A stretch of DNA of 64,000 bases from the NCBI RefSeq assembly GCF_964204645.1, contig NC_134028.1, forward strand, positions 7,874,001-7,938,000. Reading direction: 5' to 3'. The notes under the pieces are model-generated. The model ran no database searches, was not told where the DNA came from, and saw only the letters and a program-made list of their open reading frames with translations. A program made the translations under genes and the position numbers. Below, piece after piece: positions 1,271 through 64,000 of the stretch (positions are counted from its first letter, which is position 1; each line of letters starts with the position of its first letter). Source of the stretch: Tubulanus polymorphus. Lineage: Eukaryota > Animalia > Nemertea.

Positions 1271-14029
<12,759 letters not shown>

Positions 14030-20110: not shown

Positions 20111-21293
20111 TTATTTGACTGAATTCCTACAGCGGATCACGCAGAAATATTCACGAATTTCTCGTCCCAGTCAAAAAAAAATATATGTAGACATTTACCA
20201 CGTAGTTCCATGTTGAAAACTCAGTGAAAATGTCAAATAGAAAAAATTATCTCTGCTCCGGCACGATTGGTAAAAAATGTTGTAAATAGCGAATGGAAGA
20301 TTGCAAATGCGAGTGAAACTGTTACAAGCATTATTGTACGTTTTGATTTTGTAGTTTTCGGATCAAAAGAAACCTCTGAACAACAGTTGTTCAGAGGTAC
20401 CGGCGTACTTCTGTTACTGAAGTACGCCGGTACGGATAACAGAATTTGATGTTAGAATCAGGTATAGAACGACAACGTGGATGACAAATGCTACAAAATA
20501 TGTTATTTGGTCAAATAATTCGTAGTAACATCCAAAAAACTGGTCAATGAAATGTATCGACAAACCAGATGTGAAATATATAAACATTGCATTCACTGCA
20601 CAAATAAAACGAATCTAGCGAATTTCGGTGTACATATCAAACGAGATGTGAACGAGGAGATCACAACTGCTGCACGTTCTAGAGATATTGCTACTATCAA
20701 CCACGAACTATTACATCCTGCAACCGCAAATACAAATTCATATATTTGACAAATACTGATCACTGAATTCATGATAAATATATTGGAGCATCTTTAACGT
20801 GGAAGAGAACAAACTGTATAACAGGCATCAGTTTAAAACTGGTGCAGAACATGGAATCACTGAGCGACAAAACGATGGGATAGTTAGCGTAAGACAACCT
20901 GCGGAATCTGCGACTTATCATTATCAAGAAAGTAGCTGAATATCCTAAGGCCCCAAACATGAACACTGTAAAGATAATGACCAGTAACACAGTACGGTAG
21001 ATTCCAGATCTTCATGAATTCTACTCAGATGGAGATCGGTCGCACCATGGACTCTAAAACGAAAATCGTTAGAGTCCATGGTCGCACCTACAGCAGTTAC
21101 ATCGTTCTACTGTCTGTGATGAAGTTCATCACATTCCAGAACCGATCTGCATCTGAGTAGAGTTCATGATTCATGATGATCGAAGGAGTGTGTCCTGACT
21201 GGTACGACGAGAATGTGCTGTCTGGACTGTCTGAGAGTGTACTGACCGTTTCAGAATATACTGGAACTGACCGTGTCTTGGAAAATTGATTTA
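20111..21293 (-). pseudogene. Rhodopsin-class (peptide-receptor-like) GPCR pseudogene, TM region intronless
   Basis: Fragments occur in order across changing frames: TM1-2 (FTVFMFGALGYSATFLIMISRRFRRLSYANYPIVLSLSDS), TM3 (CQIYEFVFAVAGCNSSWLIVAISLERAAVV..LICTPKFAR), TM5, TM6 (TIMLVTVSLAF / CNLPFAI), TM7 (WNYVVNVYIYF..EIREYFC). There are at least five frameshifts or stops, and the conserved TM1 GN is changed to GY. Confidence 0.82.
21039..21087. mobile_element. Mini-palindrome with 7-bp TSD (P-superfamily-like footprint)
   Basis: gtcgcac-[catggactctaa aacgaaaatcg ttagagtccatg]-gtcgcac; 35-bp insert. Confidence 0.75.
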
Positions 21294-41100: not shown

Positions 41101-44100
41101 TTTCCATCGATGAACGCGGTACCCGAACTGGGCGGGGTAATTCCAGTGAGAATATTACTGCAATAAATAGATCACATCTACATTACACTAACCACAGATC
41201 GATAAACCTTCTCAAAATACAGCTCTTAATTCGGGCGAGGTCAATCCGGAATTTGATGTAATCTGGATATTATTTACGGTCAATCTATACATAAGTGTAC
41301 GTAGTATGTAAAATCATGACATTTAATTGAGATTTCTTAACCATAGGCTGAAAAAGTGGTGCCTTGTTTCTCCTCGAGTTGAACCGGCTGGTGCCTGTCT
41401 AACCTGTACATTACTTTAAAAAAAAATCTCTATCAGCCTAATCATAACATGTCCCGCAGCTATAGAAATCAACTGATTACAAATCTTATTGCAGTTTACA
41501 AAGTGACCCAGCCGATTAGCAGAAACGAGGTATCATTTTTTAAGCTTATCTAGATCAAGCATATCTAACATATCTCCGTCCAAAGGTTCTCATAATACAT
41601 ACATAGTCGATGTTTTTCCTGCTCCGTTGTGACCGAGGAATGCGGTGACTTGACCTTCGAACAAATTCAAATTCAACCCGTCGACGGCTACTTTCTTCTT
41701 GCGGCAACATTTTCCGTACCTTTTCGTTAGGTTCTGTATCGAAATACCGATCGGGAATTCACGAGGTTCCCTCTCGTGAACTTCGTTCTCATCTAGGACA
41801 AAGAAAGTAAATCAAATCCTTAGAAACTTTTTCTATATATCTTAGATAAGTTTTTATCGATTTTAAAAATTTAATTCAGATTAAGTCAATTTTTGTCATA
41901 CCCAACTTAATTCAGATATTTGATCCAGTCTGCGAGGAGTTTAAATAAAAAATCATTATCTGCTCACATCAATATATAGGTGGACCACAAATTATGTCCC
42001 GATTAGACGAGATCTTAAAGTGATCTGAATTAAGTTGGTTTCAATGTATCTTCAAGAAATTAAGAACCAGAGTATTCAGTGAAATGATTTCTAATTGGCT
42101 AAAATACCAGTCTGGTCTCGGCCAATTCGAACTAACCAAACGTTGGAATTGTATAAACTGGTTCTCAATTCCACTTAATGGTTTAACGCATAATGAGACG
42201 AGTATTCCGATCATAATTTCTTTCATTAAATTACAATTTGTATTTGATTGCGTATCAGCATTTGATATTCACAAGCAGTTAGTCATTCAATAACATTTCA
42301 CAAACAAAGCATAACTCTGGAAGCAACTCGACAAATAAATATAGAGAAAAAAGGTTTTAAAAATATAGGAAAATGATTGGCAAATTTTATGCACCAACGA
42401 AGCTATCCTTACAGAATTCAAAGATGAAAAAACCACATACAGTATTTACAATTGCAGGAAAAATTTCGTTTCTTGAAAAAGAGCAGGCTACACATGGGGA
42501 CCACATTATGAACATTCACTTTTCGAATATGTAAGTGGAGCCTGCCTTAAGTATACCCGGTAAGCTCGCAGACACGTGAAAACATTGAGATACAGAACGT
42601 CGAATAGGAGTAAAGTAAATTCGTATGGGACAGCCACTAAATACGGTTCACAGTAGATTTTTACCCTTCGATTTGAGATTTTTATCGTTTGAATCAATGT
42701 CGAGATATATTCCGCATTGAGCTAAAAATCAGATCACAAATAATCATCAACAAAAGAGCCGAAAAATCAACAGAAGAATATAGTACGTCATTTATGGTTT
42801 CATATATAGGTAGTTTGATTTCATGTTACTTACCAAAAGGTAAAAGTGGATTTAATTCTGTACAAGGTACACAACAATATATTTGAGTCATCTTTTATGA
42901 AAAAACTTACAACAGTGTATACCCGGAGTAGTTAGGGGCCATCCATTTTAGTATGTACGCAAAAGTCTCCTCCCCCCAAAGTATATATGCAAGAACGAAT
43001 ATGTTTGTGTAAAAATAAAACGTTTCTGTCGTTTAGCATAACAGGTTTTAGTAGATGGCGAAATATTTAGTACCGGGTTCTAAAATGGTGAAGATACAAT
43101 CATTGTCGATGTAGCAGTCATGGTTTATCAAAGAACACGTCAAGAGAATATAAAATCCTTTAATAATCCTGACACTTCATTTTTTATTTGAACCCAGAAT
43201 GAATGCAAAATATTGATTTCAGCAAAATCGTCAGACATACCAGTACATGCAATAGAAATACACAATTAAAGGTCAATAGCGTGCCAAATAATTATTAGGT
43301 CTGTACCGTACAGAGCCAGGTACCCCTCCGTCCCCTGTAAACATTTGTATGCATTTTCACAGACCCCCTCCGCCTATCGTGCTTACGTACTAAATGGATG
43401 ATCCCTTAGGCATCGATATTTTATGTAAAGCAACAAGCTGTATCCATTTCAGAGCCATATAGGGAAGTGTGCACGCATGTATGTACATGTACGAACAACG
43501 TGTACATGTTTCAAGCATTGTTATGACCAACTGGCAATATTCATCTACGACAACTACTGAAACTATATATCATTCCATACAGTTTCCACAGCGGCCAAAT
43601 CAATTTACCTAAAATATCTGCAGTCGATGGTTCAGTGGATCGAATACCCTTTGTCAAGCAGGCGCCTGAAAATTAAACGATCTATCAAATTTTAAAAGAA
43701 CTTTATCCAACTCTAGAACATGATATCGTCATACCTGGCAAAGCTCAGGTCGGCTCTACATAGATTGGGCTGGCAAACTGTTATGAAGTTTTTACCGAGA
43801 CATTTGAACCGTTCGATCAGGGATTCAAAAAACGTTTTAAGGGAAAACTAAGTGGGATCATGCTGTGTCTCACGTCAAAAACTGCTTCCAGAATGTATGT
43901 GTATGTATAAGCATTTGTGCATGATTATCAAAATAAATGGTGAACGTTTGAAACAGCTATTACAATCATGCTTAGAACACCGTTCCCGTATTGAGATTTC
44001 TTTTCACTCTTGTCAGGCGTTAGTGAAAACGTGCCATAATTCACGATGAACTTCATGACGTGCGCGTTTTTTGTAACAGTGTTAGATAACGCTAAATCGA

Positions 44101-47100
44101 AATACGATGACATTTCCGTCGGATCTTACCTTTCTCGTCGCTTTCGTAAATCGGGTTCACGTATTGTCCGATTCCGTACTTGTTCTCCATTTTCGTCGGC
44201 TTTTTCTGAGAACAGAAACAGTTCCAGTAGCTCGGAGTCAACGGGAAATACCAAGGTCGCGGAGTTCCATATTTACCTGAAAAATCACAATCTCGAAGAT
44301 GGATGAACATGATCTTATTATCACTTCCTCAATACCTGATTTACTATTTCAATTGATCACTAAATTTTAACATAATTTTTTTCAATTATTTGTTTCTTAC
44401 ATCTATTCTAGTGTATGTAATGGAAATTAGTACTATAACTAGTTTTCATATGACTTTAGCTCATAAATACACAGCAGAGAAATAATATAACGTCAACTGT
44501 ACGTTCTAAATTATATATCCTAACAACTATAGCTATGTGGTTTGTACGGTCTTGGAGTAATCATTTGAAATGATTACTCCAAGGTACGGTGATTGATTCG
44601 GGCTGTACTTAAATAGTTTTCATATACTGCCAGAGGCGCATTAAAAAAGATTTATAAGAAACACTTTGGTTTTCTCGCGCCAGAATTAACAATTCGAAAA
44701 AAAATAACCAAACCCGAAGTTAACCAAAACCAATCATAGAGAAGACCTATACCATGAGTGCACATATACATACTTAATGGTGTTTATACATACGGTACAC
44801 ATTGTGGTGTTATAGAACAAGGACATTTCTTTTTTCACTATGTTTCTCGTTTGTCCTGTACACTTTATTGAATTGTCAATCCAATAATGTCTTTGTTTTC
44901 AAATTAAGGCCCGATAAAGTAATTTTGAATTTGATGTTAAATTAGGTTTGTGAGTTGTGAGGATATTCAGTATCTATAGTAATATTCACCGCTGGCGGAG
45001 AGGGTCATATTAGGTCTCGCGGAATCAAACTTACCCGGGTAAATGTTTCTAACGTACCAACCGATCACGAAATATATCAGACCGTCGACGAACATCATAA
45101 TGCAACCCCACTCAAACGTCATCAACGACAGCACGTACGTATCTTTTGTGTTCGACCATTGAATTCCGACGCCTCGGTCCTCGGCTCGGGTCACGTGAAC
45201 GGTACTGAAGCTGAACGCGGACGTTGAGAACAAACTCTATCGAACAGAGAGGGAGTGATATAGGATGATATTACGTCAGAAATTCTGCGATAAACGCCGG
45301 GAATTCTGGGCCTGGGGGGGGGTCGTTTTTGCCGCGCAACACACAACACACAACAAACTTTGAAACTTACGGAATGTCAGTGGCGTTTACACGAGGATTT
45401 CAGTATGTTACCAAGCCTTCATGACAGTTGAATTATTGGAGGCCTATTCAGCTTATTAAGCGCAGAAATTGATTCCGCACCGAAAACCCGATCTCAGCAC
45501 AGTACTGAGCTGGACGTGTATTTCCTGAAGCAAGCCACCACGTATTGTAATACACTACACTCAACCAGGATCCAGTTGCTCAAAAGTTGGTTGCGGTTAA
45601 CCCCCAGTTGACATAGTAAGGATTATATTTGGTATGTTTGGATGGTATCTATCCACCGGTTATCTTCAACCAACTTTTGAGCAACTGGCCGCAGAGTGTG
45701 ATTTATTCATGCACGTGGCAGTTTTTGACTTCGTAAGCCCTGAATCTTGTGTGAACGCCGCTAATGTGCTGTGCACCGAATACGACTATATAACAATTCG
45801 AAGCATTAATGGAAAGTAATTACTGTTAAAACTTCAATGCTAACACTTTAAACAGGTTTAAAGAGTTATATTCACCGAAGTTAAAAGGTATATATGATAA
45901 TGGTATTTCATTTTATGGCGATTATTGGCTTATTTTAGGTGTCAGTGTGCATGTGAAGTTTTTGACACACATTTATATACGATTAAGGCCAGCCAATGAG
46001 TCTTTTTTGGCTCAATTTCACTTGTCTTGACATTCATTACCGGCTACCAATGTACTCCTACTTCTGGTTCTGTCCCCGGTGCTGGGGCTACAAATATATT
46101 CTTAGCTGATTTTTCTTATCTACAGTAAGATATTTGCACTGTGGCACACGGGAATTACAGAGTTCCGATATAAACCAACTCAGCTTAATTCTCAATGCTC
46201 ATTGGTCAATTACCAGCAAAGGCTGACTTTGTAACGCTCCAGTGCCGACCCGCGAGTACGGTATATTTGTAGCAGCAATTGGGGGCGGCGCCGTATTATC
46301 AAGCCCACAGTGAATGTGTTCATAAGGATTGGATGAACAATTCTTGAATATGAATATAAAAATTTGAAATTGAAGATGAATTTGGTGAAATTGACGAAAT
46401 TGAGCCTTGATCTCCATTGGATACAGATAAAATCTCATTGAATAGCGGTTTAGTGACGTGGTACATGAAACTAGTGTGGCATAGGAGGATGCAGCCAAAA
46501 TATCGGATACCTGGGTTGAGACATCTGATGTACCAACCAATGACGAAATATACGGCACTATCAATGGCCATCATGTAACAAGCGTGGTGAAATGAACTGG
46601 ATTTCCACCAGAATACCTCGTTCACATTTGACCATTGAATGCCAACGCCTTCTTCCTCGAAATATGCTACATAGCCGGCCGCCGATGAAAATGCACTGCC
46701 ATGCAGAATAAACTGTAAAATTCATACCCAAAAATCATCATTACGAGAACCTATAACTGGGACCATCCAAACATCAAAAGTAAACAAATGATCAATTGCC
46801 TTTGATCTAAATTCTGTACGAACAGAGGATTATTTCCTTCAGATGATGCAAAAATGCCGAAATAACAGCAACATGAATACATGAATATATAGTTGCAGTT
46901 ACATTGTGGTTGAATAGCCACGCTCAGAGTTCGGGAATGGATAGTACATGTAAATAAAACTGTACCTCTAGTTACATTACACATGCAGGTTGTATGATTA
47001 GTCATAAGCTAAAAGCAGCACCCGATTGAAATTTAACTCTTGAGAGTCAAATACTGCTTGGAGAACACCACCAAAACCTGCCCCCCTCCCCCTCAAATAT

Positions 47101-50100
47101 AATTCTAATCATAACAAACTGATCAGCATATCAAATGCTCACCGAGTAAAATGAGGCCAGATTCTAAAATATCGTGCAGTGTTAAAGCTATCAATGACCA
47201 AATGACGATCATGAAGTGTAAGCGTATGGAATTTTCAAATGAATTAATGAGAAGCCCGTTTCAAGCAAGCATTAGGTGGAAGAATAATGACCCAGGTTCA
47301 GTTTCACAAGAAAAATATAAGCTTAAAATGACGAAGATGTAATGAATTATAGTAGACTGTGAAATAACGAATAGCAAATAAACCAAAAGGTTGTATCTGA
47401 AATTTAACCTGGATATGGCTAAGGGGATAATCTTGCGTATGTTTTTAATATCATACAGTATATGATCGGAGTCCAGGGATACTTGAAAAGTAGTACAATG
47501 CTTGACGATCTGACCATTTACAATAATGCTCAATCTCAAACTGTGACATAATTCCAGGGTTTGGTAAGAGAAACTTTAAATTCTACTCGTGCATTTCCAA
47601 AATTGTTCTTAACAGTAATTACCCGAAATTAAAATCACTTTTCACTTAATTCGGAAAATATTCCAAATTTGTTTTGGTTGAAGAGTCAGCTTACCGCTAA
47701 TATTTGTTGCCAGAATGTCATCTTGACTTCCAAAGCCTCGGTGATGATATAGGCTTGATAGGACATCAGGTAGAATAGTATACCGACCAACGCAGCCAGG
47801 TTAGATCGATTGAAGAATGCACTGACCATATAACTAGAAGAATTCACATTTACTTTTCATGAAGGTGATTAGGGAAAAGAAGGTGGAGTCAACCCTTGAT
47901 CCTTATCGACTAATCACTTCTTATCAAGTTAACTAGCAAGTTAAGTCAATACCGGTATAGCCCATTTTGCCAGAAAGTTGAAAACATTTTGCATTATAAC
48001 CATCAAAATGGAGATTGGATATACAGTAAAATTTAAAGGAAAGAAACAATGTTCAACATTCTTATTCTATTCCGAATAATCTTTCTTAATATGGTGACTT
48101 AGAATTCCCTGAAGTCCAACCTGGAGGGTAATAAACTGACAAGAATGTCTGGCAGCAGATGACCTGATGAACAAAAAGTAAAATACAATGATAATCACTG
48201 AATGATATATTCACAAGATGTCATTTCAGTTCTCTTAATTCCCTAAAGAAAGCTAGTTTACACGCACAATACAAGTGTACATACCACATCATCAGGGTAG
48301 AGAATGAGAAATCCATAAAAAGGAGAATCAGAATCAGTGGATTACTGTACGGCAACAGCGAGGAAACTTTCATTACAAGAACGATCACTAACAGCAAAGC
48401 CATCATCAACAGGAAATTGGTGATAAACCAACTCACGAAATTGACGACGCTGCTCATTCCCATGACTTTCATCACCTAAAATAATCGGGAAGTTTCATTT
48501 TTAACGCGTAAACATCTTTTTCGCTAAATCGATAAATGTTCTCCGGATAGAAAGTACAGCGTTTATATCGACTGAAATTCACCGACCTCCTCGATTCCCG
48601 TTTCTCGGTCGTAGACTAACGATTTTATCGCGATTCCGATGAACGTAATCCACGTGATAATCATCATCAGTGGAAGTAAGAATTTATAGACGAACGATAA
48701 GAAACTGAAATCAAATTTGTAGAACATGTCGTCAGCTACAATTCTGCAATTGATTGAGGTTAGGAAATATGCACGGGTACCAATTTGGGTACAAGGAAGG
48801 TTACAGGACAGCCATCTTGTTTCTGATTGACCTATTTTATTTATGATTGGCCTAAGGATGATACATATACTACGAATATTTGAATCGGAATCTTCACGTC
48901 TTTTCCCGTCTGTTCTTTAAGGATGATACATATACTACATATGAAACTGAGAAAATTTATCATGGCATCTTCAAAATTTTCAATATGTGTAAAGAGCTGA
49001 TTTTGGCAAACGATAAATAATTTAGGTCAGAATAAATAATTTAGGTCTGTTGCGTTTGAATCGGAATCTTCACGTCTTTTCCCGTCTGTTCTTTAAGGAT
49101 GATACATATACTACATATGAAACTGAGAAAATTTATCATGGCATCTTCAAAATTTTCAATATGTGTAAAGAGCTGATTTTGGCAAACGATAAATAATTTA
49201 GGTCAGATAAGGTCAGTTTTTGGGCTGCAGATGTGCCTATACACGCATGAACCAAATATCAAGACAATCCATTGAAGCATCTGAAAAACTTCCCAAAATA
49301 ACTGTCTTCTGTCTATGGATGGATAGATGACTGACAAAAAGTGAACAAAACGAGTCCCAAGGAGGCTAATTAGATATTTTCTGTTAATGATTTAGACGAA
49401 TCCGAATGTTTAAGATGCAACCGAGCATCTATCATCAAGTGGATTTCTTAAACCGTAAGCCGGAAATATTGGCGTATTGGGCAAAGCTGTAAAAATCCAT
49501 GTATTCTAGGCTAAAAACTGCCCTCGGCTAATTGGCCAGAAAAAAATTTCAAATTTGACTCAGATATCGAGTCATAATTCAGCCCGGATTGAACATGAAC
49601 TAATTCGAACTGATCAACTTAGCACAGCACGGAACTTACCTATCTTTCATGTAACAAGGATACGGGAACTGTTGCGTTTGAATCGGAATCTTCACGTCTT
49701 TTCCCGTCTGTTCTTTAATAATCGCTCGGTCGATCATGTCTTGCAGCGGTAAAAACCCTCGCAGATATCGCAGATCCTCGGCGAAGTTATCACCAGGTCC
49801 CGGACGCGTAAATCTACGATAGAATGAACACGAGTTCCAATCGAATCTCGAAACAATGCGAGCGAATTTAATCATGATATTTACTGTAATTGGAATATCA
49901 ACTTACGCCAACCACGATGTATCCGTATTCATCGTATTATCGACATCGACACGGATTTTATACCGAACAAATTTTGGCAACGTTCCAGCAGTAATCGTAT
50001 TGTTTGCGGCTCGTTTCTTTCGATTTTGTTGTTGTCCGAATTCAAATACGATACCTAAAACCAAACAGTCGTAAACGTAACGTCGTGAAATGATGTCCGA

Positions 50101-53100
50101 GAAAAACTGAACACACTATATGAAAATTTCCTGTCCACATATACCTCCAAGAAGTTTTCTTTCTTTGGCCCACTTAGCAGTGACAGTCTGCAATTCCTTC
50201 TCTGATGAAACCCCAACATATCTGTACCAATGAATGATACAATACACATGAAACAACTTTTATCATGTACTATGATGGCAGGCTATACGTATAGTCACTC
50301 AGAAATTACATGTTCTGTAAGTTACGCAAGATTTTTTTCTGGAAAACTACGGATAAGTTTCTGATCCAAGAGGAGGGGTGGGGGTGGCAAGAGTTGCAAA
50401 AGATTTTATTCCGGAATATTTCAGAGAGTTCTGATCTAAGAGAGGGGTGAGGGTGGCAGAATGCCGGAAGACTTTTTTACCGAAATTTCAAAGAGTTCTG
50501 AACTAAGGGTTAGTGGGACCTCGAAATGTAAACACCGTATTACGTATTGTCTCACCTAACCATATCCCCTACCTAAGCACTTCATAACTAGTTATGAAAT
50601 CTAACAACCAATATCTCAAGATTTTGAAAATGAAATACTGTTTCCAAGAGAACTGAATCGTCAGCAATAATGACCAGAGATCCCCTGGATATTTCCAAAA
50701 GGGAATCCTCCAGACTTATGTTATCCTCTGCATATCACTAGGAATCTTCCGGAATATTTCAGGAAGAAATCCGGAAATTTCAGACCTTCTGTACAGTGAA
50801 ATTTCTGGACATGACTGCACACAGTAGACCTTCTTATGTATATAGAGTAATATTGAGCAGTCATGTTAACTAGCATCTTCATGACTTAAGTCTAACCTAT
50901 TAACATCCATGCATTCTGTGAAATTAAGTGTTAATCCAGCCAGTTGTTTTATTCTAGCGGTATCATTTCTAGAAACAGTTGTCATGTACGACAGACTGTC
51001 AATCAACTCGGTCCCATCTACACCAGTTATAGACATCATAGCTGCGCCTACCATTGGGTTCGCCATCGATTTCTACAATAAATCGATTTCAAATCTTTAT
51101 GTATTTCTGACCATCATCAAAATAGATACGAGAGAATCCGATGATTACCTTGATTATATCCAGTTTTGGTCCCATGTCTGATAATTTTTCCAAATATTGA
51201 ACATTCTTATTCACTGATTTCAGCATGTCTATCAAACTGGCGAGCTCCTCGTACGTAGAATTTGCCTACAAAAATATCAAAATTAAGTTGGAACTTAAAA
51301 TCCACCTGCGTGATCAACAGCAGACACAATTAGCTAAGTTAAACTAAAGTTAAGTGAGTAATAGTAACATCCCACTAATGTCCAAGAAAAAATTTCTTGG
51401 GCGAAACGCACATGTTCTGATGAAGTATGTGAACAAATACTTACCGAAGACATAATTCTTCTTGTAAGTGGCGTATTCGGCGTGAATGCAACTTTTCCCA
51501 TCAGGAACGGCTTGAAGAATGCCCAGATAACCGGTCCAGCTGGTAAATCTCTTATGGTCTTGAATATATCAATACAGAATTCACCTTGAACGAAATCAAC
51601 AATCAATGAATAACAAACACATTATCGTTAAGCAAGCTTGTTGGGACTTAAAATCCACTTGATCTATGTGTTGTTATTGACCATAATGTAGATATATAGG
51701 AAGGGCGGTTGTGCAACAAATCAAATTTCTTCGTAGTTATGCTTAGGAAATTGATGTATATGGATGAACTTACTCTTCTTAGCATCTTTGAGAATTTTCA
51801 CTTCATTCAAATACGAATCACTCAAATTATCAGCTTTTTTCTGTTCTGCCGACTGCCCAATTTTACCGGCTACATTCATTTCATCGTTGACCGAAAACAT
51901 ATTTTCCATTCCGCACATCATTCTGCTTATTGATTTCATCGCGCCGCTCGCTGCAATCATTGACAAAATAAATGAACGCCCTAACTTGCGATATAGAGGA
52001 TTTTACGACGCTTATCATAAAAGAGTATTTCAAAGTGCCAATATCCATGATGAATATGATCAGCAACTCTTGTGCATTGGGGTTTTTACTCTTAACCTAC
52101 TTAAGTGATCTAAAATACTCTGCATTCAGCTGTCATCAGGCCACACACTCATTTGACAGTGGGTGGAGCGAAGCAATGAAGATATAAGTAAATGCTTTGC
52201 CGAGAGACATTTCATTAGAAGTGGAACATTGCCTTTAAATATTGAAATAGGCTGTCATCAGAACATTAAACTTGAAAACCGTATTTGTACCTTTTGTGAT
52301 CTCAATGTTATTAAAGACGAATTTCATTTTGTTCAGATTTGCTACAACTATACTGAAATTCGATCTATCTTACATACAACAGCAAAAAATAAATTCAAAG
52401 ACTTTGAATTAAAATCACCCGAATCCCAATTTATATTGATCATGAAAAACCTTCAAATTGAATTTTCACACTATATCACATAGATAAATAATAAAATAAA
52501 ATACATACAGCACTGGGTTCAAATCACAACCTGGCATCACACCCACACCACTACTCTGCATCATCGTTTTTCAAAAAGAAAGTTACCTGATGGTGGATCT
52601 GAGCCGATCGTACTTGTGTCAAGTGAAGGAATATCATTAGTCATATTGGCAACAGTGTACATCACTTCAGCGAGGTGCTCTTTCATCGGTTTCATTGCTT
52701 GCATCATTTCTTTCATGGATTCTGCAGAAACGTTTGATTTTCTCAACAAACCATTTATGCCCATATTCATAGCCTAAAGATACAAACACAGGTTGCATGA
52801 ATTGGAGAAAATGCTTAAACTCAGGCAGTCTGTATTCAATAGATATCAAGAACATGTTGCTAAAAGGCCGTTGACCTGAGCCCGAGGTTACGGATTCAAG
52901 ACTGGTCATAAAAACAATCTCACAACTTAATACTGCTTTGGATTTAAGACTATTTTCCGACTAAACACAAACGTAGACTTGGGTCTTGCCTGAATTTCAT
53001 TGAAACACTTTACTGGTTGCTGATTGAGAAACCTCGCTCAATCAACCATATTCTTTTTGGGATACACTGTTCAGCTTTAGCGTGATGGCTATTCTTACCG

Positions 53101-56100
53101 TTTGAATAAGACGACCGATGTCGAGATTTCTCAGAACTGTTTCCGTGATGTTGACGATCAGTTTTCGATCGATGGAGCACAAATGACGGCTGATATCCTC
53201 AATCGATAGTGTCGGTGTATTCGATACAGTTAAAATCTTTCCGAGGTTCGTAGCGTTACAAATGAGCTCATTGATGTTGGCTTTGTTGTTAGCTACGAGC
53301 ACCTAAAAATAAAACAACCACGTTATCAATATTCTCTAACAATACTGTAATTTCATGGTGAGAATCTATTTTCCCCCGAGTGTTTGACGCACAAACCTGT
53401 AGATACGAGAACGGAGCCATCATCAGAGCTTCACTGGCATTCTTAGTAAGTCCGATGCTAACCAAATAATCGGCGAAATCCTCAGGCGATTTGACGACAT
53501 CCTTCAGCGCAACTGTAAAAGTAGGAATATGGTATTTTCACCAAAATAACTTAAATTGGACCACGTTCATCTGTCATATATCATATTCCTTTTTTGGTTT
53601 TATGTTATAACACAAAGCTGCCAACGTGCATATATCAGGACGACTACCAGTATGGTAGCTTTCAGAGGGCAAACAATTCTAATCAGCGGTACAAGACAAA
53701 TACTGTGGTTGAAAGATGGGTTTGTTCGGGGACTATCGCAGTTAGTAGCTCTGTATGTAATCATATACACATCGTATGAGTATGGCTGAATGAATGTATA
53801 AGTTAGTTAGTAGAGTTTGACGTCCCAACCTCAAGTAACAGTGGGTCTTAGGAGACGACCAGGGCCTTTATAAAGGTTGCTATTGCCCTCAACCTGACTA
53901 CGTTAGCAGAGCTTATTCCATGTTATTGACAGCCAGCGCAGAGGTGGTTTCAAACCAGGCACCACCTGCTTCCCAGTCCTCCACTCAACCAACTGAGCTA
54001 ACTGCACAAGACTGAGTATATGAATGAATGAATGAATGAATGAATGAATGTACAATGTATGAATGAATGAATGTCTAAAACAATAAATACAAACCATTCA
54101 GAGGCATAAAAGTCTTGTATACGTGCAACGATTTAACACCATTGGCGAGTTTTGCCAAAATATTCATCACTCGCTTCGTCGACGGATCTTTTCCGATTTC
54201 CTCAAAAGTTTGCAACAAGGATACAATGCTGTAAGAATGATTGAATAATCAAAGGGTTTACTTCAGATTCTTGAAATTAAATCCTCAAATGGATTCTAGC
54301 TGGAGACAATATAGAGTAGCTGGCTTGGGAGATGTTTGCCGCCTACAGAAGCTCAGCTGTACTTCTACCCAGAGTCAAATTTGGCCCGTGCCTAATTAGA
54401 GAGCGTGTTCACATGCAAACCATTCACTTGATACTAAACAATGCTCAAACAAAGCAAGTCACTTCCGGAACCAGTCGCAATTCACACGTTATCATCTGAC
54501 CCATGCTAAAATTTGGCCGGGCCTGGCTTGACATTGTGTAAACAGTTGTTCAGGCCAAAAATGATTGTGTGATCATGGTTATAGACTAGGATAAAGTCAG
54601 CCAGGAGCACCTGTTCTGATGACTTCGCATACACTATAATAATCATCACTGTTAATACCTGTCAAATATTTTATCCGGTTGGTTATCCATTATGAATCGC
54701 TGAATCCTCGGCAAAATTTCCAGCGCTTTCTCCGTTGAAAAGTCGTTCAATATCGCGAACAAGTCGATCAAAGATTGGCTTCGTTTGATGATGTCACCGG
54801 CGTATTTGACGATGTCCGATATCAAGGCGACATCGGTAATCGCTAATCCCGACGATTCGAACGCCTAAAGAACGACATGAAATGAAAAATATTTATATTT
54901 TATATCTTCCCGATGATATTCCAATAGGCCACCGAAAGAATACTTACTCGGACAATAACGTATCCGATGTTGACAGCGTCGCGGAATTTGCGAATATTTG
55001 ATGTGACGTTCTCCGTACAGATCGAGTCGGTTATTTTCTTGTAGTCGACGTTTAGCAGCGGCGAGAAACTGATCGCTTTCGCCAAATTTTCCGGTTTGCA
55101 AAGCGTATCTTTCAGTGCTTCATCTGATTTGTTACCCAGGTGGCGCTTCAAGTAGAGAAAGCAATTTTGACAATCCATGTGACAATGGGTCTTGGGCTCC
55201 GAAATTACCATGCATTAGTTCCCATTGCATTTTGGATATGTGGTATCTAGGACCATTAGCTAAATTTTGTCAAGACTTATTGAACTTCGACCCCGTTCCT
55301 GAGTTATGAGGTTATCTACAAGGTCATGGAGCTCTAAGAGTTTTTAGGGCCTAGTTCCGTAACTAGGTGGCGCACTGGGCCCATTCTTTGCACTGCACAA
55401 CCAGACCACCAGACTAACGTTGCACCCAGGTTTCATCAAATTGACCCACTATTAATGAACCTAAGTAGCAGAAAGAAAGACCCACAGACTGACAGTACGA
55501 GAATAAGGGTCTCACAGAAGCCCACAAACCAAGCAATTATAAGAGACAGCAGCATATGCCTTATATCATTTACTAGTGGGTGAGGGATTAGTAATTTAGG
55601 ACAAGAAGGCAGAGGAACCATGGTGAAAATTTCCTTATCTAAATATATATCTGAAACTTACCAAATCAACAGTCACAGTTGCTCCGAGCAGAGAAAATGC
55701 AACCTCGGGTGCCAATTTCAAAGCATCCACTAGGATTTCGGAAGCTTTCGCCTCTGACGTGAATAGTTTTGCCATCTTTAAAGTCACTGATTTTTGGCTC
55801 AACAACGGACGGAGAATCATTTCAATATCCATTATATTAAGAAACTCTTTCAGCGCAGGATCGGAGAGCAGTTTTGCGACAGTAGCGCCCATTTCAAAAG
55901 CTCTGCCGATACAAAAAGAGACAGAAAATTGAAAGCACACGATTTTCAAAATCCCAACAGCAAATGATAATGACGTGGGTTGAAATAGCTACTTACGCAT
56001 CGATAGTTTTCAGGATTGAAGGTTGGGCTTGCCCGGCATGACACTGATGCACTTTCTCGAATAAATCCGATTTTGAAAAGCGTTCCACTGCGGCCACATA

Positions 56101-59100
56101 TTCCGATATCACGTTATATGTTCTTTGACATGAGAAATGTGCCGGCTTTGAGAACAAGTTTTCAAACTGAAACAAACAATAAAGTAAGAATTTTTAAACG
56201 CTTTCTAATGAAACTAACCGACTTCAACAAAATTACGGTATTGAAATCAAAATAATCATACAGATAAAGGTTTGAGTCTTAAGAATATATCTAACTGGAG
56301 GTCAATTGTCTCTGAAAGATACCTTGCGAGATATAATAAACTTTATGCAAAATTTTCACATACCCTTTTAACAGTCTCTTGTATTTTGAGTTTGTTGACA
56401 AGTTCCAATAAGCCACTAATGTTCAGGTTTTTCAGCGAGCATATTACATCAGCTATATTAGGCTCTGTGAAAAAAAGCAGTCATAATCGATTCAAACTCA
56501 CTATCACGTATGTTAATTGCCACGAATAGCAGTTTTCCATCTATTCAACAACTACCTATTATGTTCATTTTTTCAGCAAATATCTCATAAATGGTCAACG
56601 TTCCATCCGTTAAATTAGCTATCATTTCCACCATTTGCGGCGACAACATCTTAACGGTGGCCTGGCACGCGGCGTTAATGCTGAAAAATTTGTGAATTTT
56701 AATACCAATTTTCCCCAATATCAAACACTTAGGCAGGTTTTGATTGGTTTCTACCAATTCCGGAATTCCTTCTGGCATGTTCGTTTCAACCAGAATATGC
56801 TCTCCTTATTCAGGAATAGCATAGTTTGCAAACATGATAAAATGCTGGAAGAAAGTTTGTAATCCGGAATTACAATTCCTTAACCAAAATATGTTCTATC
56901 GAAACCTGCCTTACATTTTTCTTTCATCCTTCTTACAATAGTCATTACCTTTCATTATTCATAGTTTTCGTGGCATTCAGAGCGATTTCGATAGGTTTAA
57001 ACCAATTCGCTAAATCTACAGTATCAATACCAGTAGAATTCATCACCTGCGCGAATGATGTCATCCATTTCTGAAATTCCGTTACGTAATAAACGAATGG
57101 GTTTCGAGTTAAATCCGCTGGTTTCGTAATGGCAGCTGTGACCTATGCAGAAGAATGTTAAAATATTGTTACAGTAATGGACTAGAGATAGCAGTCGTCC
57201 CATGGAGAGAAATACTCGTAAATAATATGATTTCATATGGAAATTGAGATTATATGAAATGTTTCCATAAAGTGCACCCGTGTCAAATTTTCCGCGAACT
57301 TAGATGATAAGATTAATATGCACGTAAGCAATAATTCTTTTATCATAAGATACAAGTGAAATTAATCTAATCTATCGTAATAATAAGAAACACAAGGGTA
57401 TAATGAAAGCCATAGTGTTATAAAACACATGTAGAATTAGCTTAAGTTTCATTCGAAGGAATAGCATGAACCATCTTGTAAGGCTATATTTTTGCAATTA
57501 CGTACTGCATTAACGAAGTCGGTCATCCTGATAAGTTTGACAATTTTGCCGAATCTCAACGAGTCGGATTTCAACGCATTGCACATGGCTGTCTGTATGG
57601 CATCAGCACTGATGACAGAATTGTCCCCGAACAAGAATGTTTCTTGGAAAAACACAGCGTTACACATCATATTAACAGCGGCCTTCTCATTCGCCATCAA
57701 AAACTGGGAAAACTAAAATATCGAAAAATGAATGTAGCTAGTTCGAAAAATAAGCGCATCAATGCCATAAATGCAAACCGAACCAGAACTTCGGCTGTGG
57801 TTGATTTCACAAAAACCTTTTTTTTAAAAAAGAAAACCTTTTTAGCTGAAATAATTGTAATTCAATAAATCAACGCATCAGATGAATCTTACCCGTTCTG
57901 GATTCACTACCGCTGTCAACAGAGAAGCCGTATCTGATGGCGATAAGTAAGGCTTCAAGATATTAGCCAATGCAGTACTGTTAGGTAAAATTCTTGATAA
58001 GGAGATCTTCGTATGCGGACCTGTTTTAGAAGACATCTTTTAATTATCAAAACTGCGCGAAAAAACAAAACCCTTTCACAAAATGTTTTAGCTTTGGACG
58101 TATATCACGAATATCTTACCTAGTGATTTCAGTATCTTGTTAAATTGTTCATATACATTTGCCTGTATAGCAATATTTTTCTTCATTTCATTCCAGAAAT
58201 TTTCTCTTCGCAAAAATGGATCCACGTAGTTCAAATACAGAACAGCTCTGCAAAATATCATTCTTCGCTGTAAATATCATCCTTTTTCATATTTACATGA
58301 ATGACATTATGGTGAATGATAGCTTCATGATATCAAAATCCCCGTAGAATTTCTGAACGTAAAAGACCTAATACCGTGAATAAAGAGGATACCATCAATT
58401 TGGCAACGCAAATGTACTTACAGATCCCAGAATTTCTTCTGGATTAGTTCTGAGATATGAGACATAACAGGCAGGTATTTCTCCAAATCGAGCTGCCACT
58501 TTACGCCCGACGGTAGCTTGTTCAATGCGGTGAACACATCGACGATGCTCAGCAAATTCGACTTCATTTTCGCCCAATCATTCGGAGGAAGTAAACGTTT
58601 CACGATACCGTCAATGGATGAACCATTTTGAATCAAAAATTTAAAACTTAACTAGAAGAACATGAACAACAAACAATAACTTTAATAACGTCGAAAGACA
58701 AATATGTCGAACAGTTTTCAGATTTCAGTCAATATCCGTACCAATTGAACGAGGAATATGTATTCTCCCGTGTTGAATCCGGCAGATTTAAGCGCTGAAC
58801 TCCAGTTTTCACCGGGAATACCACAGATGGCAGCACTCATCGCAGTTACATTCATGTATAACGTAGCACTTAGATATGACTCGAGCGTATCCGGTTTACA
58901 TATGATATCCTGCATTGATTTCTCTTTCGCTATAACTGTGGCCTGATATGAAAAATACGATTTACGTACAACTAAGACATATATCACAAGACTACCCAGT
59001 ACTTCATTTGATTTTGATTAAATACATATACATGTAGATGAAACCATCCACATATCTTCGATTAACACTTACAGAAACTCTGTAGAAGGCTTTGTTATAA

Positions 59101-62100
59101 TCGGAGAGAGCGATCGAGTCAGGACTAAGCTGTGCAAATAGTGTGTCGACCAACTCTTTAATTGCTGTGTTGTTTGACAGGAGATTTTCGATTCTTGATG
59201 GACTTCCTAATAACGTGAAATCAGATATGGTATACAAGTCTCAAACCAGTCTAAATGAACTTTGAACCAAAAGTACAGTAGTTGGATTAAACCTGTTAGA
59301 TTTTCATTAGTCAGCAGAGGTAAAGTTTTACAAGAAATTTAAACTGGAATTTTTGGTTTATTTCCTATTGGTTATATAATGTTTGTTTAAGCTTAAACTT
59401 TTGAATGACACCAGACCCCCCCCCCCCCGTAATAATGTGCTGGTTTAAATACCTGCTTTCTCTAGAAAATACTTCGATATTTTCATACTGTCCAACACTG
59501 ATGATACTTGCAACATAATTTCTTTAAACGATGGGTCTATATTCTCATATGCAGAGCCAATTGATGCCATTAAAGACAGCAGCCTAAAATATATATGCAT
59601 TTTGCAATCTTCACAAGTTACCTTAAGTATTAGAGTTAGCTTTTCTAAATAACTCCCAGTCGTAGGTTTATTTGGTTTATTAACCAATAATTTAAACACT
59701 TTAAATTCGGTTCCAGTACTAACTACAAAATACCTTTTTGGATCCATCTTTGTAAGCTCTTGCAATGTCTCTAACCAGTTTGTCGTGTTGAATAGCATCT
59801 TCAAACTTTTGCCGATTGACGGACTACTCTGAATCATTTTCGTAATCAAATGCTGTAACTGTTGTTGGTTCATCAACATTGAAGTGAAGTTGCCATTCGG
59901 ACCCATTCGGTGAATCTGAACATAAAAATAGAAAGAACATTCGTCCTCATTAATGCAGTCGCAAATAAAAACTTGGTTAACAAATTAAGATGATCTAGCA
60001 TGATATAATGTACACTGCAATGTACACTGTCTAACCTGCATGGCGTTTCTAATTTCGAACTCGTTCTCCAATTGTTGCATGAAAGCCGGTGTTGCTAGGC
60101 GACAGATCTGTTTGTGCAGTTCTTCGATAGTAATTTTCTGTTGCATTTGGTTTGCCGGTAATTTCAACCACGAGTGGAGTGGCGTACTACACAGCCTGTC
60201 CTTCAGAGTGGACTCGTTCAAAGCGCCATTCTTGAAATCGTTCATCAGATTATAAAGCTGAAATATATTTGTAGATACACAAATATCTAATCAGTTAATT
60301 CGCGATTTACATCGATTTTGTAATCAAATTATCATCTTAGAATTCTGTATGAATCAAGCTTGAAATGTAAAATGCTTATGAAAAACGTACGAAAAGTGGG
60401 CTTATTTCTGAATTCAAAAGCACAGTAGCCGCGCGTGCGTCGAACCTCGCCACAGATGTCAAGTAGTCTCTCATTATTGTAGCACTTTTCAGCATCAATT
60501 TCAGTGTTATAGGCTCTTCTACAAAGAAAGCAAAAATTTGTTGCCATTATTTCGTACATCATCTCCCAAGTTTTGTTTACCTGCTTGTGACAGGTGTACA
60601 TGCTCATCAGAGGATGACTTACTGAGCGCCTGTTCAAGCCGAGTATTGATGAATTTCAAGTAAAAGTCTACAACATCCAATGCCTGCAGTGCAGCTCTTC
60701 CCTGCGGTGACCGCTTCAAAACTGCTGAAAGCTCATCTAAGGCTTGTCCGAACCTGCGAACAAAAGTACATACAGTCAAACCCACAATCCGGATCAGCTT
60801 AATCTGGATTTTGGTTTAATCTGGACAATATTTGCAGTCGATATGTTCATTAACATGACAATGGCTTATAATCCGGATTTCTAGTAAACTGATGAATTTT
60901 TTTGGTCCCAAATAATCTGAATTAAGCGGATTCTACTGTAGCATAATTAATAGGCTTATACTACCCTACATGCGCAGTATGCATGGATATAAGCAATGGC
61001 TTTATCCAGATACATTGTATTTTTTTGTTCCTCTGATGATGAGGTTTAGAATTAACCTTGAAACCATTAGAAAATAAACTTTTGCTTCAAATCTACTGTG
61101 GGTTTATATTTGTTAACTATGCTGAGATTTATATCAATTCTTCACTACAGTCAGATACACGCATAGTTTAGCGGTCGTCGTTCTGATGTATTTGCCAGGC
61201 AATTCCTCCCTCGATAAATGTTTAAAATCTAATCATTATTTACCTGGAACATAAATCCCTTCCCTTCTAGGTTAAAAAGCATTACCAATGAATGAGAAAT
61301 GTATACATGCTAGAGTTTAGACCCCTTCCACTGCTACGTAACAAGGAAACTTAATTTGTTGGATTTTTTGGCAACTTATCCATCCCATATAATAGCCAAT
61401 GTATACATATAATACTCACATTAGCATATCCTGCGTTGTAAATGATCTATTAAAGCGCTGTAATAGAGTCTGTATAGCAGTTTGATATCTAGTATAATCA
61501 GCCATGTTCAACAGCTGGTCACCGACGGTAGGCGGCTTTTTCAGCATTTTCATGATAAGATCGACGAGATGAGCAGAGTCCAAGACAACCTGAGTCCAAT
61601 TCAGTCTCCCTGTCGGTGGTTGTTGCAGCTGAAGATAGAGGACACATGTAGAGATTAGTACCACACATTCCGAGACTTGTAGAAACTAAGCGATATATCA
61701 ATTGAACTACTTTCACTGCCAGCTCAAGCATCTGCGCTTTCTCAAGCCGCTACAAATGCTGGTTGGAGAATGAGAGTGCCCAGCCCTGTTTGGTCATAAT
61801 AGTTCCAGTGCATATCGGGGCAAGGGGAAGGCTCCAAAAAGGGGCTCCTCCTTTCGTAAAAACTCAAAATGAATTCTCTGGGCCAGTGGTAGGTTCTCTG
61901 CAACAAGCAGCCACCCACAGGTCCAACCAGGTCGGAGACGGTTGGCCCTCCCAGGTCTCACGTCTCACGTGGTACAACTGGAAGAAATTATATGAACTTG
62001 ACGAACCCAAGCACTTAGTTCTTCAATTTCACATTTCGAATTATTTCATTCGAAAAATTGCATAGAGTGGATCCTTACACAGACAAAGGATCTGAACATT

Positions 62101-64000
62101 TAGTAACTTATTCTATTTTCGAAATACTTCTTTCTATATTTTGTGAAACAGTCAGTAATTTCAATATCTGGAACAATGTAGAACGAATGTGGAGCATCAT
62201 ATAGTTCAACTGAACTTAAAAATCTTCATAAACGCAAATAGGTTTGACATTCTTGATGGGCTTAAATGTGGCAGAGTTTTATCATGTAGTTAGTTACACT
62301 CACCAGATGAATGTAAGCTTGAATGTTGAATTCTGACTTCAGTTTCTCATATATCAGAGTCGCGTTCATGCAAGCAGTCATTTGTATTTTAGTCAGCGGT
62401 TTCTGCGATTTGCCGGCAGGAATGATAAGTATTGAATTCCAGTCGACTGCACAAGGATTCGGATTCGTCATCAATATGCTCAGCTGAGAAAAGTCAGGGT
62501 AAAAACATAGTCATCGAATCGAGCAAACCAGTTTAAATTTTGTCTCGTTAAACTCGGAACTGGGCGAAGTGATTAAGCCAAATACAGAAATGTTGAATAC
62601 TAAAAATCTAAACCGATGCAGCGCTTTACCAACTAAGTCTAGGTATAGTTGCAAGTGGAAGTAGAAATTCTGAACAGAAAAACTTGACTTTCTGTAAGAT
62701 TTCTACTAATTGATATTAATGAGTAAGTATATTTCCTTTTGCAGATTCACCCTACCTTGCCGACATCAACATTCATACTAAATACAGCATCTAACTCGGC
62801 TGGACTCATCAGAATATTTCCTTGTATGAAGCGCTTGATTTCCGTTATATTTCGTACCAACATGTCGAGTGTGACCTTCGTTTGAAATGGAGTCAGTTGT
62901 TTGATCAGCATTTTGACGATTCCTTGATACAACTGACCATATTTATAGATCATTTCGAGCAAAGGTCTAGTTCCTGGGACGTTTTGAAGTCCATACAATG
63001 CGACCCGTATTCCTTCGCTCACCCTGCAACGTTTGAAAAGGGATATTTTGATAACAAGTCCAACTATCCAATGACGGTGGAATACGTACAAAGTACTATA
63101 CATACAAAAGCGGAATGTCTTCTACTCGGACAGGTATCATTTTAAGCGCATTCAACACGTTGTTCGTCCATTTAGCGTCAGTCGTTCCTGTCTGTTTGAA
63201 AAACTCGGACATCGTTGGCAGACGGATAGCTCGCAGTAGTTGACTATACGACGTATACAACCTCTGGACACTTTCAATAGCTCGCGTCCAGTTTAACGGT
63301 TTCATCGATGGCTGGTTCAGTGCTTTAATCTATGATATGAGACAATTTGTTAAGAATCAAGCATCAATGGTATGCAAGCCTCTTATACTTTTTTGCAAAC
63401 TGAGAGATTTTTATACGTCTATCATTCATGAGGTTTTTACTGGTAACAGTAGTCATTGGAACTTTCTAGTTCCATAGTTGTGTAAGTTGAGTTTGATTCA
63501 AGTTTTAAAACTGGCAGTTCGTTTTCAACAGTGAAACACTTGAGTCAAAATTAAACTCCCAGTTAGCTTACTGGATTCTGGTGGTTACAAATACAGCTGG
63601 ACCAAGATAATTGAAGAAGTCCTACAATTCAAATTTTATCTGATAGAATCTATCATTATGAAACCACAACGTTTGGGCTGTTGACTAACAGCTAACATCA
63701 GGTGGAGGAATGACCAAAACACACATAACAAAGTATATCAGCTCGCAGGATGAAAACAGAAACTATGAACAGAAAAAATCTGAATTGTGAGACTTCTTCA
63801 ATTATCTACAGTGTGCACGGATTAGAGAGTTTATTCGACTACTGAGCCAAGATGTGTTTAGTCCAAACAAACCTGTTTAAGAATGACATCAAACTTGATT
63901 AGCTTCCGTAATTCCAAAGACAATGAAGTGAAATTCGTTGTACACAACAATCTTCTGATTTCATTCTCGTTCGCAGACTTCGGCAACATTATTTCGTTGC
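32191..64000 (-). CDS. ABCA: Giant ABCA-subfamily lipid transporter (ABCA1/12/13-like), 5' end outside the window
   Basis: About 60 GT-AG exons. ECD1 exons run from >64000 to 49640. TMD1: 48704-48587, 48475-48285, 47833-47695, [46712-46511 or 45236-45035], 44276-44130 ([12 protein letters not shown]). NBD1: 41792-41603 (GHNGAGKTS), 41157-41026 (GFCPQ), 40338-40255, 39833-39637 ([19 protein letters not shown]), 39211-39048 (STHHLEEAD). R1/TMD2/ECD2: 38697-34845. NBD2: 34433-34185 (GVNGAGKTS), 34024-33890 (YSGGTKRRL), 33616-33522 (DEPT), 33441-33349, 33110-33008, 32831-32694 ([11 protein letters not shown]). The last exon 32442-32191 ends VFDTRL*. Exon borders above ~55 kb are less certain. Confidence 0.95.
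40361..40662. mobile_element. MITE (PIF/Harbinger-like), ~300 bp
   Basis: Terminal inverted repeats agccacgatcacatg(a/g)gca match at 18/19, AT-rich 3-bp flanks, internal ccaaatttggcc subrepeats; a diverged copy lies at 54377-54580. Confidence 0.8.
44544..44590. mobile_element. Mini-palindrome with 7-bp TSD (P-superfamily-like footprint)
   Basis: gtacggt-[cttggagtaatcattt g aaatgattactccaag]-gtacggt; perfect 16+1+16 palindrome. Confidence 0.78.
45035..45236 (-). CDS. ABCA duplicated exon, variant B (TM5-EH-TM6)
   Basis: cgatag|[30 protein letters not shown]...[22 protein letters not shown]|gtaagt; 202 nt, phase 0 to 1. Confidence 0.88.
45572..45688. mobile_element. Short MITE between the two alternative ABCA exons
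   Basis: 22-bp perfect inverted repeats ccagttgctcaaaagttggttg / caaccaacttttgagcaactgg. Confidence 0.8.
46511..46712 (-). CDS. ABCA duplicated exon, variant A (TM5-EH-TM6)
   Basis: ttttacag|[30 protein letters not shown]...[22 protein letters not shown]|gtatcc; 202 nt, phase 0 to 1. Confidence 0.88.
48853..49207. repeat. Near-perfect 176-bp-period tandem duplication carrying copies of ABCA exon sequence
   Basis: 48879-49031 equals 49055-49207; each unit starts with a copy of sequence from 49669-49718. Confidence 0.92.
50358..50510. repeat. Degenerate ~68-bp tandem repeat (2+ units)
   Basis: ttctgatc(c/t)aagag..ggggtg.gggtggca..aaga.tttt..ccg.aa.tttca.agag is repeated. Confidence 0.75.
52150..52503 (+). 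mobile_element. Non-LTR retrotransposon (CR1/L2-like) 3' fragment, antisense to ABCA
   Basis: [35 protein letters not shown] is the C-terminal CCHC-type motif downstream of LINE reverse transcriptases; it is followed by an A-rich tail at 52485-52503. Confidence 0.75.
53801..54006 (-). mobile_element. tRNA-derived SINE
   Basis: Minus strand begins gtgcagttagctcagttggttgag (A box) ... ggtttgaaacc (B-box-like) and ends gggacgtcaaactctactaactaac; flanked by (GAAT)n. Confidence 0.72.
54021..54072. repeat. (GAAT)n microsatellite
   Basis: Interrupted tetranucleotide run. Confidence 0.9.
54377..54580. mobile_element. Second, partial and inverted copy of the 40361 MITE
   Basis: Matches the reverse complement of 40361-40625 (e.g. 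cgtgcctaattagagagcg, gcaaaccattcact, aacagttgttc, tgtgatc). Confidence 0.8.
60773..60938. mobile_element. Tc1/mariner (pogo/Tigger-like) MITE
   Basis: TA|CAGTCAAACCC ... GGATTCTACTG|TA with internal aatc(c/t)gga subrepeats. Confidence 0.7.
61760..61990 (+). mobile_element. SINE-like interspersed repeat fragment
   Basis: GC-richer island in an AT-rich intron, resembling conserved central SINE domains; family not firmly recognised. Confidence 0.35.

Follow-up and report, generated by a model that had tools for sequence, protein, structure and literature searches.

The window analysed here, a stretch of 64,000 nucleotides from the nemertean Tubulanus polymorphus (NC_134028.1, positions 7,874,001 to 7,938,000), carries on its minus strand a multi-exon ABCA gene that runs in from the window edge and has its stop near 32191 (Table 1). 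The gene has the domain order of ABCA full transporters (ECD1–TM2–6–NBD1–TM7–ECD2–TM8–12–NBD2), and Walker A, the signature, the Walker B glutamate and the H-loop are all intact in both NBDs. Its ECD1 holds a tandem array of lid modules, an architecture about which we have almost no doubt. Elsewhere in the window lie a MOZ/SAS acetyltransferase exon with a long low-complexity ORF (5467–14026, plus strand), a weakly matching saposin-like exon (18700–19151, minus strand; E 0.007) and a piece of a rhodopsin-family receptor (20600–21011, minus strand).

Table 1 Features of the ABCA gene, from the window edge to the stop (positions are those of the window)
Feature	Position	Strand	Basis
Unit 1 exon b, cut by the window edge, with second Cys of the pair	63873–64000	−	Ptychodera-profile tile; X2 record covers 63951
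Unit 1 exon c (63329–63106); fused d and unit 2 a (63023–62756)	62756–63329	−	Contiguous record coordinates 2728–3219
Unit 2 b (62483–62304, Cys pair), c (61628–61420), d (60753–60623)	60623–62483	−	Summed length equals record 3220–3739
Unit 3 a (60518–60391, 128 nt), b (60257–60036), c (59915–59734), d (59583–59453)	59453–60518	−	Joints, profile tile
Unit 4 a (59206–59073), b (58942–58742), c (58651–58422), d (58247–58120)	58120–59206	−	b–c joint inferred
Unit 5 a (58020–57893, 128 nt), b (57712–57506), c (57142–56949), d (56680–56556)	56556–58020	−	Joints
Truncated unit 6: b-end remnant (56464–56364), c (56166–55997), extra cysteines	55997–56464	−	3.8–9.9 bits
Fused d and unit 7 a (55902–55662), b (55145–54948, 198 nt), c (54864–54659), d (54228–54095)	54095–55902	−	Joints
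Unit 8 (membrane-proximal) a (53512–53397), b (53302–53099), c (52773–52587), linker exon (51950–51774)	51774–53512	−	Joints
ECD1 base, six exons, ending at the PYPC motif	49640–51584	−	Joints; matches ABCA1/7/4 chains
TMD1 (TM2–TM6)	44130–48704	−	Spliced joints, tblastn
NBD1, motifs intact	39048–41792	−	Exon joins modelled
Regulatory region, TM7, ECD2 and TMD2, candidate exons	34845–38697	−	tblastn with Antedon and P0024
NBD2 (motifs intact), R2, last exon with stop	32191–34433	−	tblastn, motifs

Our hand-built model comprises 36 exons, from 63998 to 48285, in a single open frame. At least 26 of its 35 introns are GT–AG joints among the listed joints of spliced contigs from run X2 (one of four runs from one study), which was taken as RNA because its contigs skip GT–AG introns. 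The end of exon 6 (60623) and the start of exon 28 (51950) were set from spliced joints, and cumulative exon lengths reproduce the record coordinates from 63329 to 58742, including the end of the record at 4737. The multi-exonic architecture proposed in a preliminary description of this DNA is borne out, and all 23 of the peptide motifs quoted there lie in one open frame of the model. Three X2 contigs cover the array, with breaks inside exon 20 and at the 58742/58651 exon border, where we infer the bridging joint.

Exons 63998–49640 encode 1,904 amino acids (aa) of ECD1 before the TM2 exon, without a stop and without TM1, in agreement with the earlier estimate of roughly 1,900 aa with TM1 still not reached. 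The 5′ contig contains 2,727 nt before exon 2, with 128 nt inside the window and 2,599 nt (at most 866 codons) upstream of it; the latter would give room for TM1 and about three further units, such that the units probably total about 11. TM1 would precede ECD1 outside the window, where it is placed by relatives (it is present in Ptychodera, Ostrea and Bulinus). From the 1,516–1,640 residues between PYPC and the end in six relatives, the whole protein would be near 4,300 aa in length. The runs differ from the window at 16 exonic allelic positions (47776–63951), comprising 7 synonymous and 9 non-synonymous differences and no stops.

Two homologous 202-nt exons with identical phases lie in TMD1 (46712–46511 and 45236–45035, minus strand). 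The spliced contig contains only the second, and inclusion of both would shift the frame; the two therefore look mutually exclusive. An exact 153-nt tandem duplication in an intron (48871–49207) has copies that each hold 42–50 nt of the 3′ part of the upstream exon. The ECD1 base has a furin-like RxKR loop (exon 50054–49907, minus strand), at which ECD1 may be cleaved. Among the sequences compared, this loop is present in all five lophotrochozoan rows, giant mollusc proteins among them, and, as RxKR or RxRR at the same position, in three of eight ABCA12/13-type rows; it is found in none of four echinoderm or acorn-worm rows and, in a difference from the window protein, in none of four ABCA4, ABCA7 and Clavelina rows.

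The four-exon repeat unit

The repeat is a cassette of about 220 aa that occurs eight times in the window (one copy is truncated and one is cut by the window edge). The preliminary description had proposed 7–8 tandem copies of a two-part unit. The copy number holds, with 2,599 nt of transcript still to be added upstream; the unit has four exons rather than two parts. These cycle through a (phase 1 to 0, 116–134 nt), b (0 to 0, 180–222 nt), c (0 to 2) and d (2 to 1). The peptide motifs listed earlier are all present, but part (a) at 59073–59206 and the truncated unit at 55997–56464 had been overlooked; the reported Cys pair is present, in exon b, with a spacing of x24–28 instead of about x25–28. 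The phase-1 intron is absent at two of seven unit junctions, and in one case was lost within the fused exon 63023–62756.

Mutual identity among the window units averages 13%, and the window sequence by itself gives a weak repeat signal, which becomes clear in profile comparisons with outside sequences. Self-comparison, suggested previously as a check, did not reveal the repeat: whole-protein self-BLAST of the window protein returned the diagonal alone, with no internal repeat match. Within the window sequence, 7 of 15 a+b pairs exceeded z of 3 (versus 3 of 48 control pairs) and four of six leave-one-out profiles scored above all shuffled decoys; the c+d half by itself was barely above reversed controls. 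A profile built from 25 Ptychodera units only placed 8 tiles on the window protein, 7 of which scored 15–33 bits. With an 81-unit profile that excluded the window, seven tiles scored 39–60 bits and the truncated sixth 9.9; the reversed window protein reached no more than 7.3 bits.

The same intron positions and phases return from unit to unit, as expected from the exon-block duplication proposed earlier. The a/b introns fall at profile column 51–52 in phase 0 in all six units that have one, and the b/c introns at column 113–114 in phase 0 in all eight units; column 217 of the mapping was fixed by unit borders that we set. Shuffle tests of intron phase (59 and 78 of 20,000) are modest, and the column mapping is the stronger evidence.

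Pfam searches with 17 single exons and 33 unit rows found no family, a search for single-exon homologues limited to 2,000 aa found none and an ESM Atlas search gave no usable match. Designed PPR proteins, the only type of match for the b-exon profile against the PDB, were rejected as summed weak matches. Typical units contain two cysteines, versus the six-cysteine pattern of saposins, and saposin is absent among the listed matches of Pfam and fold searches with units.

The helical hydrophobic moment is strong in the array (z 8.7) compared with the base (0.8) and NBD1 (−1.5), which supports the earlier notion of amphipathic modules. An AlphaFold model of one Ptychodera unit is mostly helical, with a mean pLDDT of 70.7 and values of 80–94 over most of a+b. 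The structural check envisaged for the unit yielded no fold match for this model at E ≤ 0.001 (best Z 4.2, rmsd 4.0, 86 residues). ABCA chains are not among the listed fold matches, which may reflect poorly modelled lids. A five-unit model (pLDDT 43) was unusable for unit packing.

Counterparts in ABCA proteins and in other animals

ABCA1, ABCA4, ABCA7 and ABCA13 each contain a single match to the unit, which covers the lid and the flanking tunnel helices. Compared with an ABCA4/7 profile, the unit profile gave one match (97.3% probability, E 2e-11). A mixed profile without an ABCA1 row matched ABCA1 once, at residues 147–301 of PDB chain 7tdt (E 2.4e-8), in keeping with the statement in the preliminary description that ABCA1 has one such unit; this profile contains ABCA4/7/13 rows, such that its ABCA4 match is circular and the ABCA1 match alone was used. 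An invertebrate profile found one match in each of seven ABCA4, ABCA7 and Clavelina rows, near residues 140–320, and the first Anneissia unit aligns to ABCA4 residues 61–237. According to two sources, the ABCA4 lid (residues 138–271) is the unresolved apex of ECD1 (10.64898/2026.06.25.734683; PMC8219669), and the stretch matched by the unit overlaps it.

Exon structure points to the same region. Human ABCA4 exon borders given in the variant tables of one source (PMC7544654) were mapped through rodent ABCA4 rows with matching numbering, and fall at profile columns 9, 51 and 114 with phases equal to those of the unit; c.570/571 and c.768/769 (introns 5 and 6) correspond to columns 51 and 114. 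As the borders of ABCA4 exon 4, c.302/303 (phase 2) and c.442/443 (phase 1), also have the phases of exon d, the cassette is best read as d–a–b–c, which would equate to ABCA4 exons 4–6 plus the following helix. The match of a d–a–b profile extends to ABCA4 residue 98; part d alone did not exceed reversed controls (4.7 versus 5.1 bits). C205 and C230 of ABCA4 fall at columns 66 and 91, the positions of the Cys pair. Exon lengths are also alike: two window copies have an exon a of 128 nt (as in ABCA4 exon 5), one copy has an exon b of 198 nt (exon 6), and the base begins with exons of 140 and 117 nt (exons 9 and 10).

A b-exon profile search of 1.84 billion proteins gave 14 matches: 8 long relatives (Ptychodera, Antedon, Anneissia, Diadema, Patella, Bulinus, Paralvinella and Macrostomum), 5 short fragments and 1 unrelated cysteine-repeat protein (P0011), which was dropped. 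The profile search of invertebrate ABCA proteins proposed earlier thus revealed arrays in five phyla (acorn worm, echinoderm, mollusc, annelid and flatworm), with 3 to 27 units per annotated protein, counts that include proteins that contributed to the profile. Profile-independent counts are 7 units at ≥10 bits plus one at 9.7 for the window, 15 for Ostrea and 8 for Holothuria. Ostrea P0030 runs from TM1 to NBD2 in one protein with 15–16 units. The giant relatives are annotated only as uncharacterised, hypothetical, ABCA1-like or ABCA12, and we found no functional test of them in the literature surveyed.

The window protein is collinear with Patella XP_050393414 (24% identity over 2,103 columns), and the limpet protein aligns in one piece across residues 5–2007. 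Units 5–8 match the last four limpet units one to one: unit 5 is closest to the fourth from the base and truncated unit 6 to a short unit in the equivalent position. For unit 8, the best counterpart is the final unit in Patella, Ostrea, Macrostomum and Antedon, and in five of six relatives overall. The proximal array is therefore ancient. Given arrays of 3 to 27 units in five phyla, the design is widespread and ancient and not particular to the Tubulanus polymorphus genome.

In trees built without ABCA1 or ABCA2 rows and with near-duplicate relatives excluded, the window protein groups with lophotrochozoan rows (92/98 support). Rooting with the paralogous half rejected neither an ABCA4/7 clade (AU p 0.58) nor an ABCA12/13 clade (AU p 0.52), and free trees unite the chordate groups (support 86 and 90/93).

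Some relatives have features of their own. In Ptychodera flava, P0001 is an N-terminal part (6,292 aa, TM1 and 27 units) and P0028 a C-terminal part (4,923 aa, 14 units and the transporter half); the two have contigs of equal length and may represent one split gene for a single ABC transporter of more than 11,000 aa. The central Ptychodera units have recently been homogenised. Bulinus P0003 has short cysteine-rich repeats inserted in the first lid (residues about 160–600), possibly an annotation artefact, and Anneissia P0004 has a WAP domain between units (residues 532–571). Pfam PF26955 is precomputed on many relatives and missing from the ten-unit Patella protein P0009; it is therefore probably something other than the lid unit.

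Possible roles of the array

We lean towards the reading that this ABCA gene, with at least eight tandem lid modules in ECD1, exports lipid into the array as a tethered acceptor or store. Lipid transport by the protein is very probable; that the array is the acceptor is a more tentative proposition. ABCA1 drives phospholipid by way of a gateway and an annulus into the tunnel of ECD1. Simulations and mutants support this route (PMC9381790), and the hand-off from the tunnel to an acceptor is described as lacking direct validation (PMC13161189). By analogy, the ATP-driven pump would send lipid out through the ECD1 tunnel. With the ends of ECD1 anchored at the neighbouring TM1 and TM2, the array would form a loop that emerges from the top of the base and returns to it. 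The single units would act as helical caps pinned by disulfides, and lipid coming out of the tunnel would pass to the hydrophobic faces of the loop, which would replace a soluble apolipoprotein. Against this, amphipathic helices also build ordinary helical bundles. Of these possible roles, we favour a tethered acceptor over a stalk or sorting scaffold, and either of the two over a continuous tunnel.

The scaffold reading, in which a glycosylated stalk has the proximal unit alone handle lipid and the others set distance, sort, or bind matrix or partners, is less probable than the acceptor. Such a role would accommodate a copy number that varies from 3 to 27 per annotated protein, and units that are 13% identical yet have proximal members orthologous across phyla. 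The array has 1.6 N-glycosylation sequons per 100 residues, but this density is matched by the cytosolic NBD1 control (1.56). According to one study, mouse ABCA13 requires its long N-terminal region to localise to vesicles, although the deletion removed TM1 too (PMC7948424). Nearly every copy keeps the lid motif, the Cys pair and the hydrophobic pattern, which a plain spacer would not need.

That the units stack as one continuous, elongated tunnel carrying lipid far from the membrane is improbable. Each unit has helices positioned like those before and after the ABCA4 lid, and helix c adjoins helix d of the next unit in sequence, which would permit domain-swapped stacking; however, the copies are tandem rather than nested, each with its own lid, and the chain must come back to TM2, unlike a single outward tube. 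Of the two extensions first envisaged, of the tunnel or of the lid, this arrangement is a better fit to serial lid modules on a loop. It is highly improbable that the upstream exons are a separate secreted protein and the fusion a gene-model artefact: one of the contig breaks coincides exactly with the 58742/58651 border and several relatives have split-gene annotations, but a single contig joins unit 7 through TMD1, the other break is inside an exon, the border has compatible phases and neither a stop codon nor a signal peptide, extra depth at 58757 suggests a bridging piece, the limpet protein aligns unbroken and oyster P0030 spans TM1 to NBD2.

If the array is a tethered acceptor, a broader scenario can be sketched, to which we give little credence at present. 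The bilaterian ancestor of ABCA1/4/7/12/13 would have had its own acceptor, a looped chain of lids that wrapped or shuttled lipid; ABCA1, ABCA4 and ABCA7 would be one-unit reductions (in ABCA1 the job passing to apolipoprotein A-I) and ABCA12 and ABCA13 eroded arrays. The acorn-worm version, with about 41 units, might be a single gene of more than 11,000 residues and, if one transcript, larger than any ABC protein in the literature surveyed.

In the open literature, to which the survey was confined, we met with no account of repeated lids in ABCA proteins. The tandem-lid array is a real, widespread and apparently undescribed form of a known transporter family. The arrays offer an approach to the question of how ABCA pumps release lipid in animals that are not known to have apoA-I. 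The ABCA1/ABCA4 lid is poorly resolved in cryo-EM, lacks a clear function and carries many Stargardt variants of uncertain significance (10.64898/2026.06.25.734683; PMC8219669). The lid is an exon-bounded, duplicable module with more than 100 natural divergent copies, which give a deep alignment, a confident core model and boundaries for expressing the lid alone. They also suggest how the giant domains of ABCA12 and ABCA13, so far without explanation, may have arisen, a proposal that can be tested.

Comparison with known transporters and lipid acceptors

The window protein, with a giant ECD1 and an insert N-terminal to a proximal lid, has the arrangement of vertebrate ABCA12 and ABCA13, in which a very long amphipathic insert precedes one recognisable membrane-proximal lid. 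The profile search of ABCA12/13 recommended earlier recovered this single lid and no further units detectable by profile, either across some 3,000 aa of ABCA13 or in the bird ABCA12 protein; segments outside the lid reached at most 3.6% probability against the unit profile, a result that erosion would leave too. The single proximal lid is, at the level of sequence, evidence against a simple repeat origin of these inserts. One ABCA13 study states that the N-terminal region has no well-conserved domains (PMC7948424). The giant domain of ABCA13 is reported to be partly encoded by a 4.8-kb exon, whereas the window array is multi-exonic. Bird and frog ABCA12 have tandem ECD1 duplications of their own that are longer than the window unit: a near-identical 636-aa duplication in birds (protein about 3,990 aa) and repeats of about 570 aa in frogs (6,172–6,662 aa; both in the P0039, P0055 and P0056 set).

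Exchangeable apolipoproteins, which consist of tandem amphipathic helices, are a functional analogy, as the array could likewise take up ABCA-exported lipid. They differ from the window units, each of which spans about 220 aa, probably has a disulfide bond and is joined to the pump itself, and no sequence or fold match between the two was found. The same unit and array as in the window occur in Ptychodera XP_070556625, Antedon XP_071965866, Patella XP_050393414 and Ostrea P0030, and these giant invertebrate relatives differ from the window protein in copy number and distal units. ABCA1, ABCA4 and ABCA7 share its domain order, and their single lid with flanking helices equals one window unit; they have one such unit in an ECD1 of about 600 aa, whereas the window protein has at least eight in an ECD1 of at least 1,904 aa.
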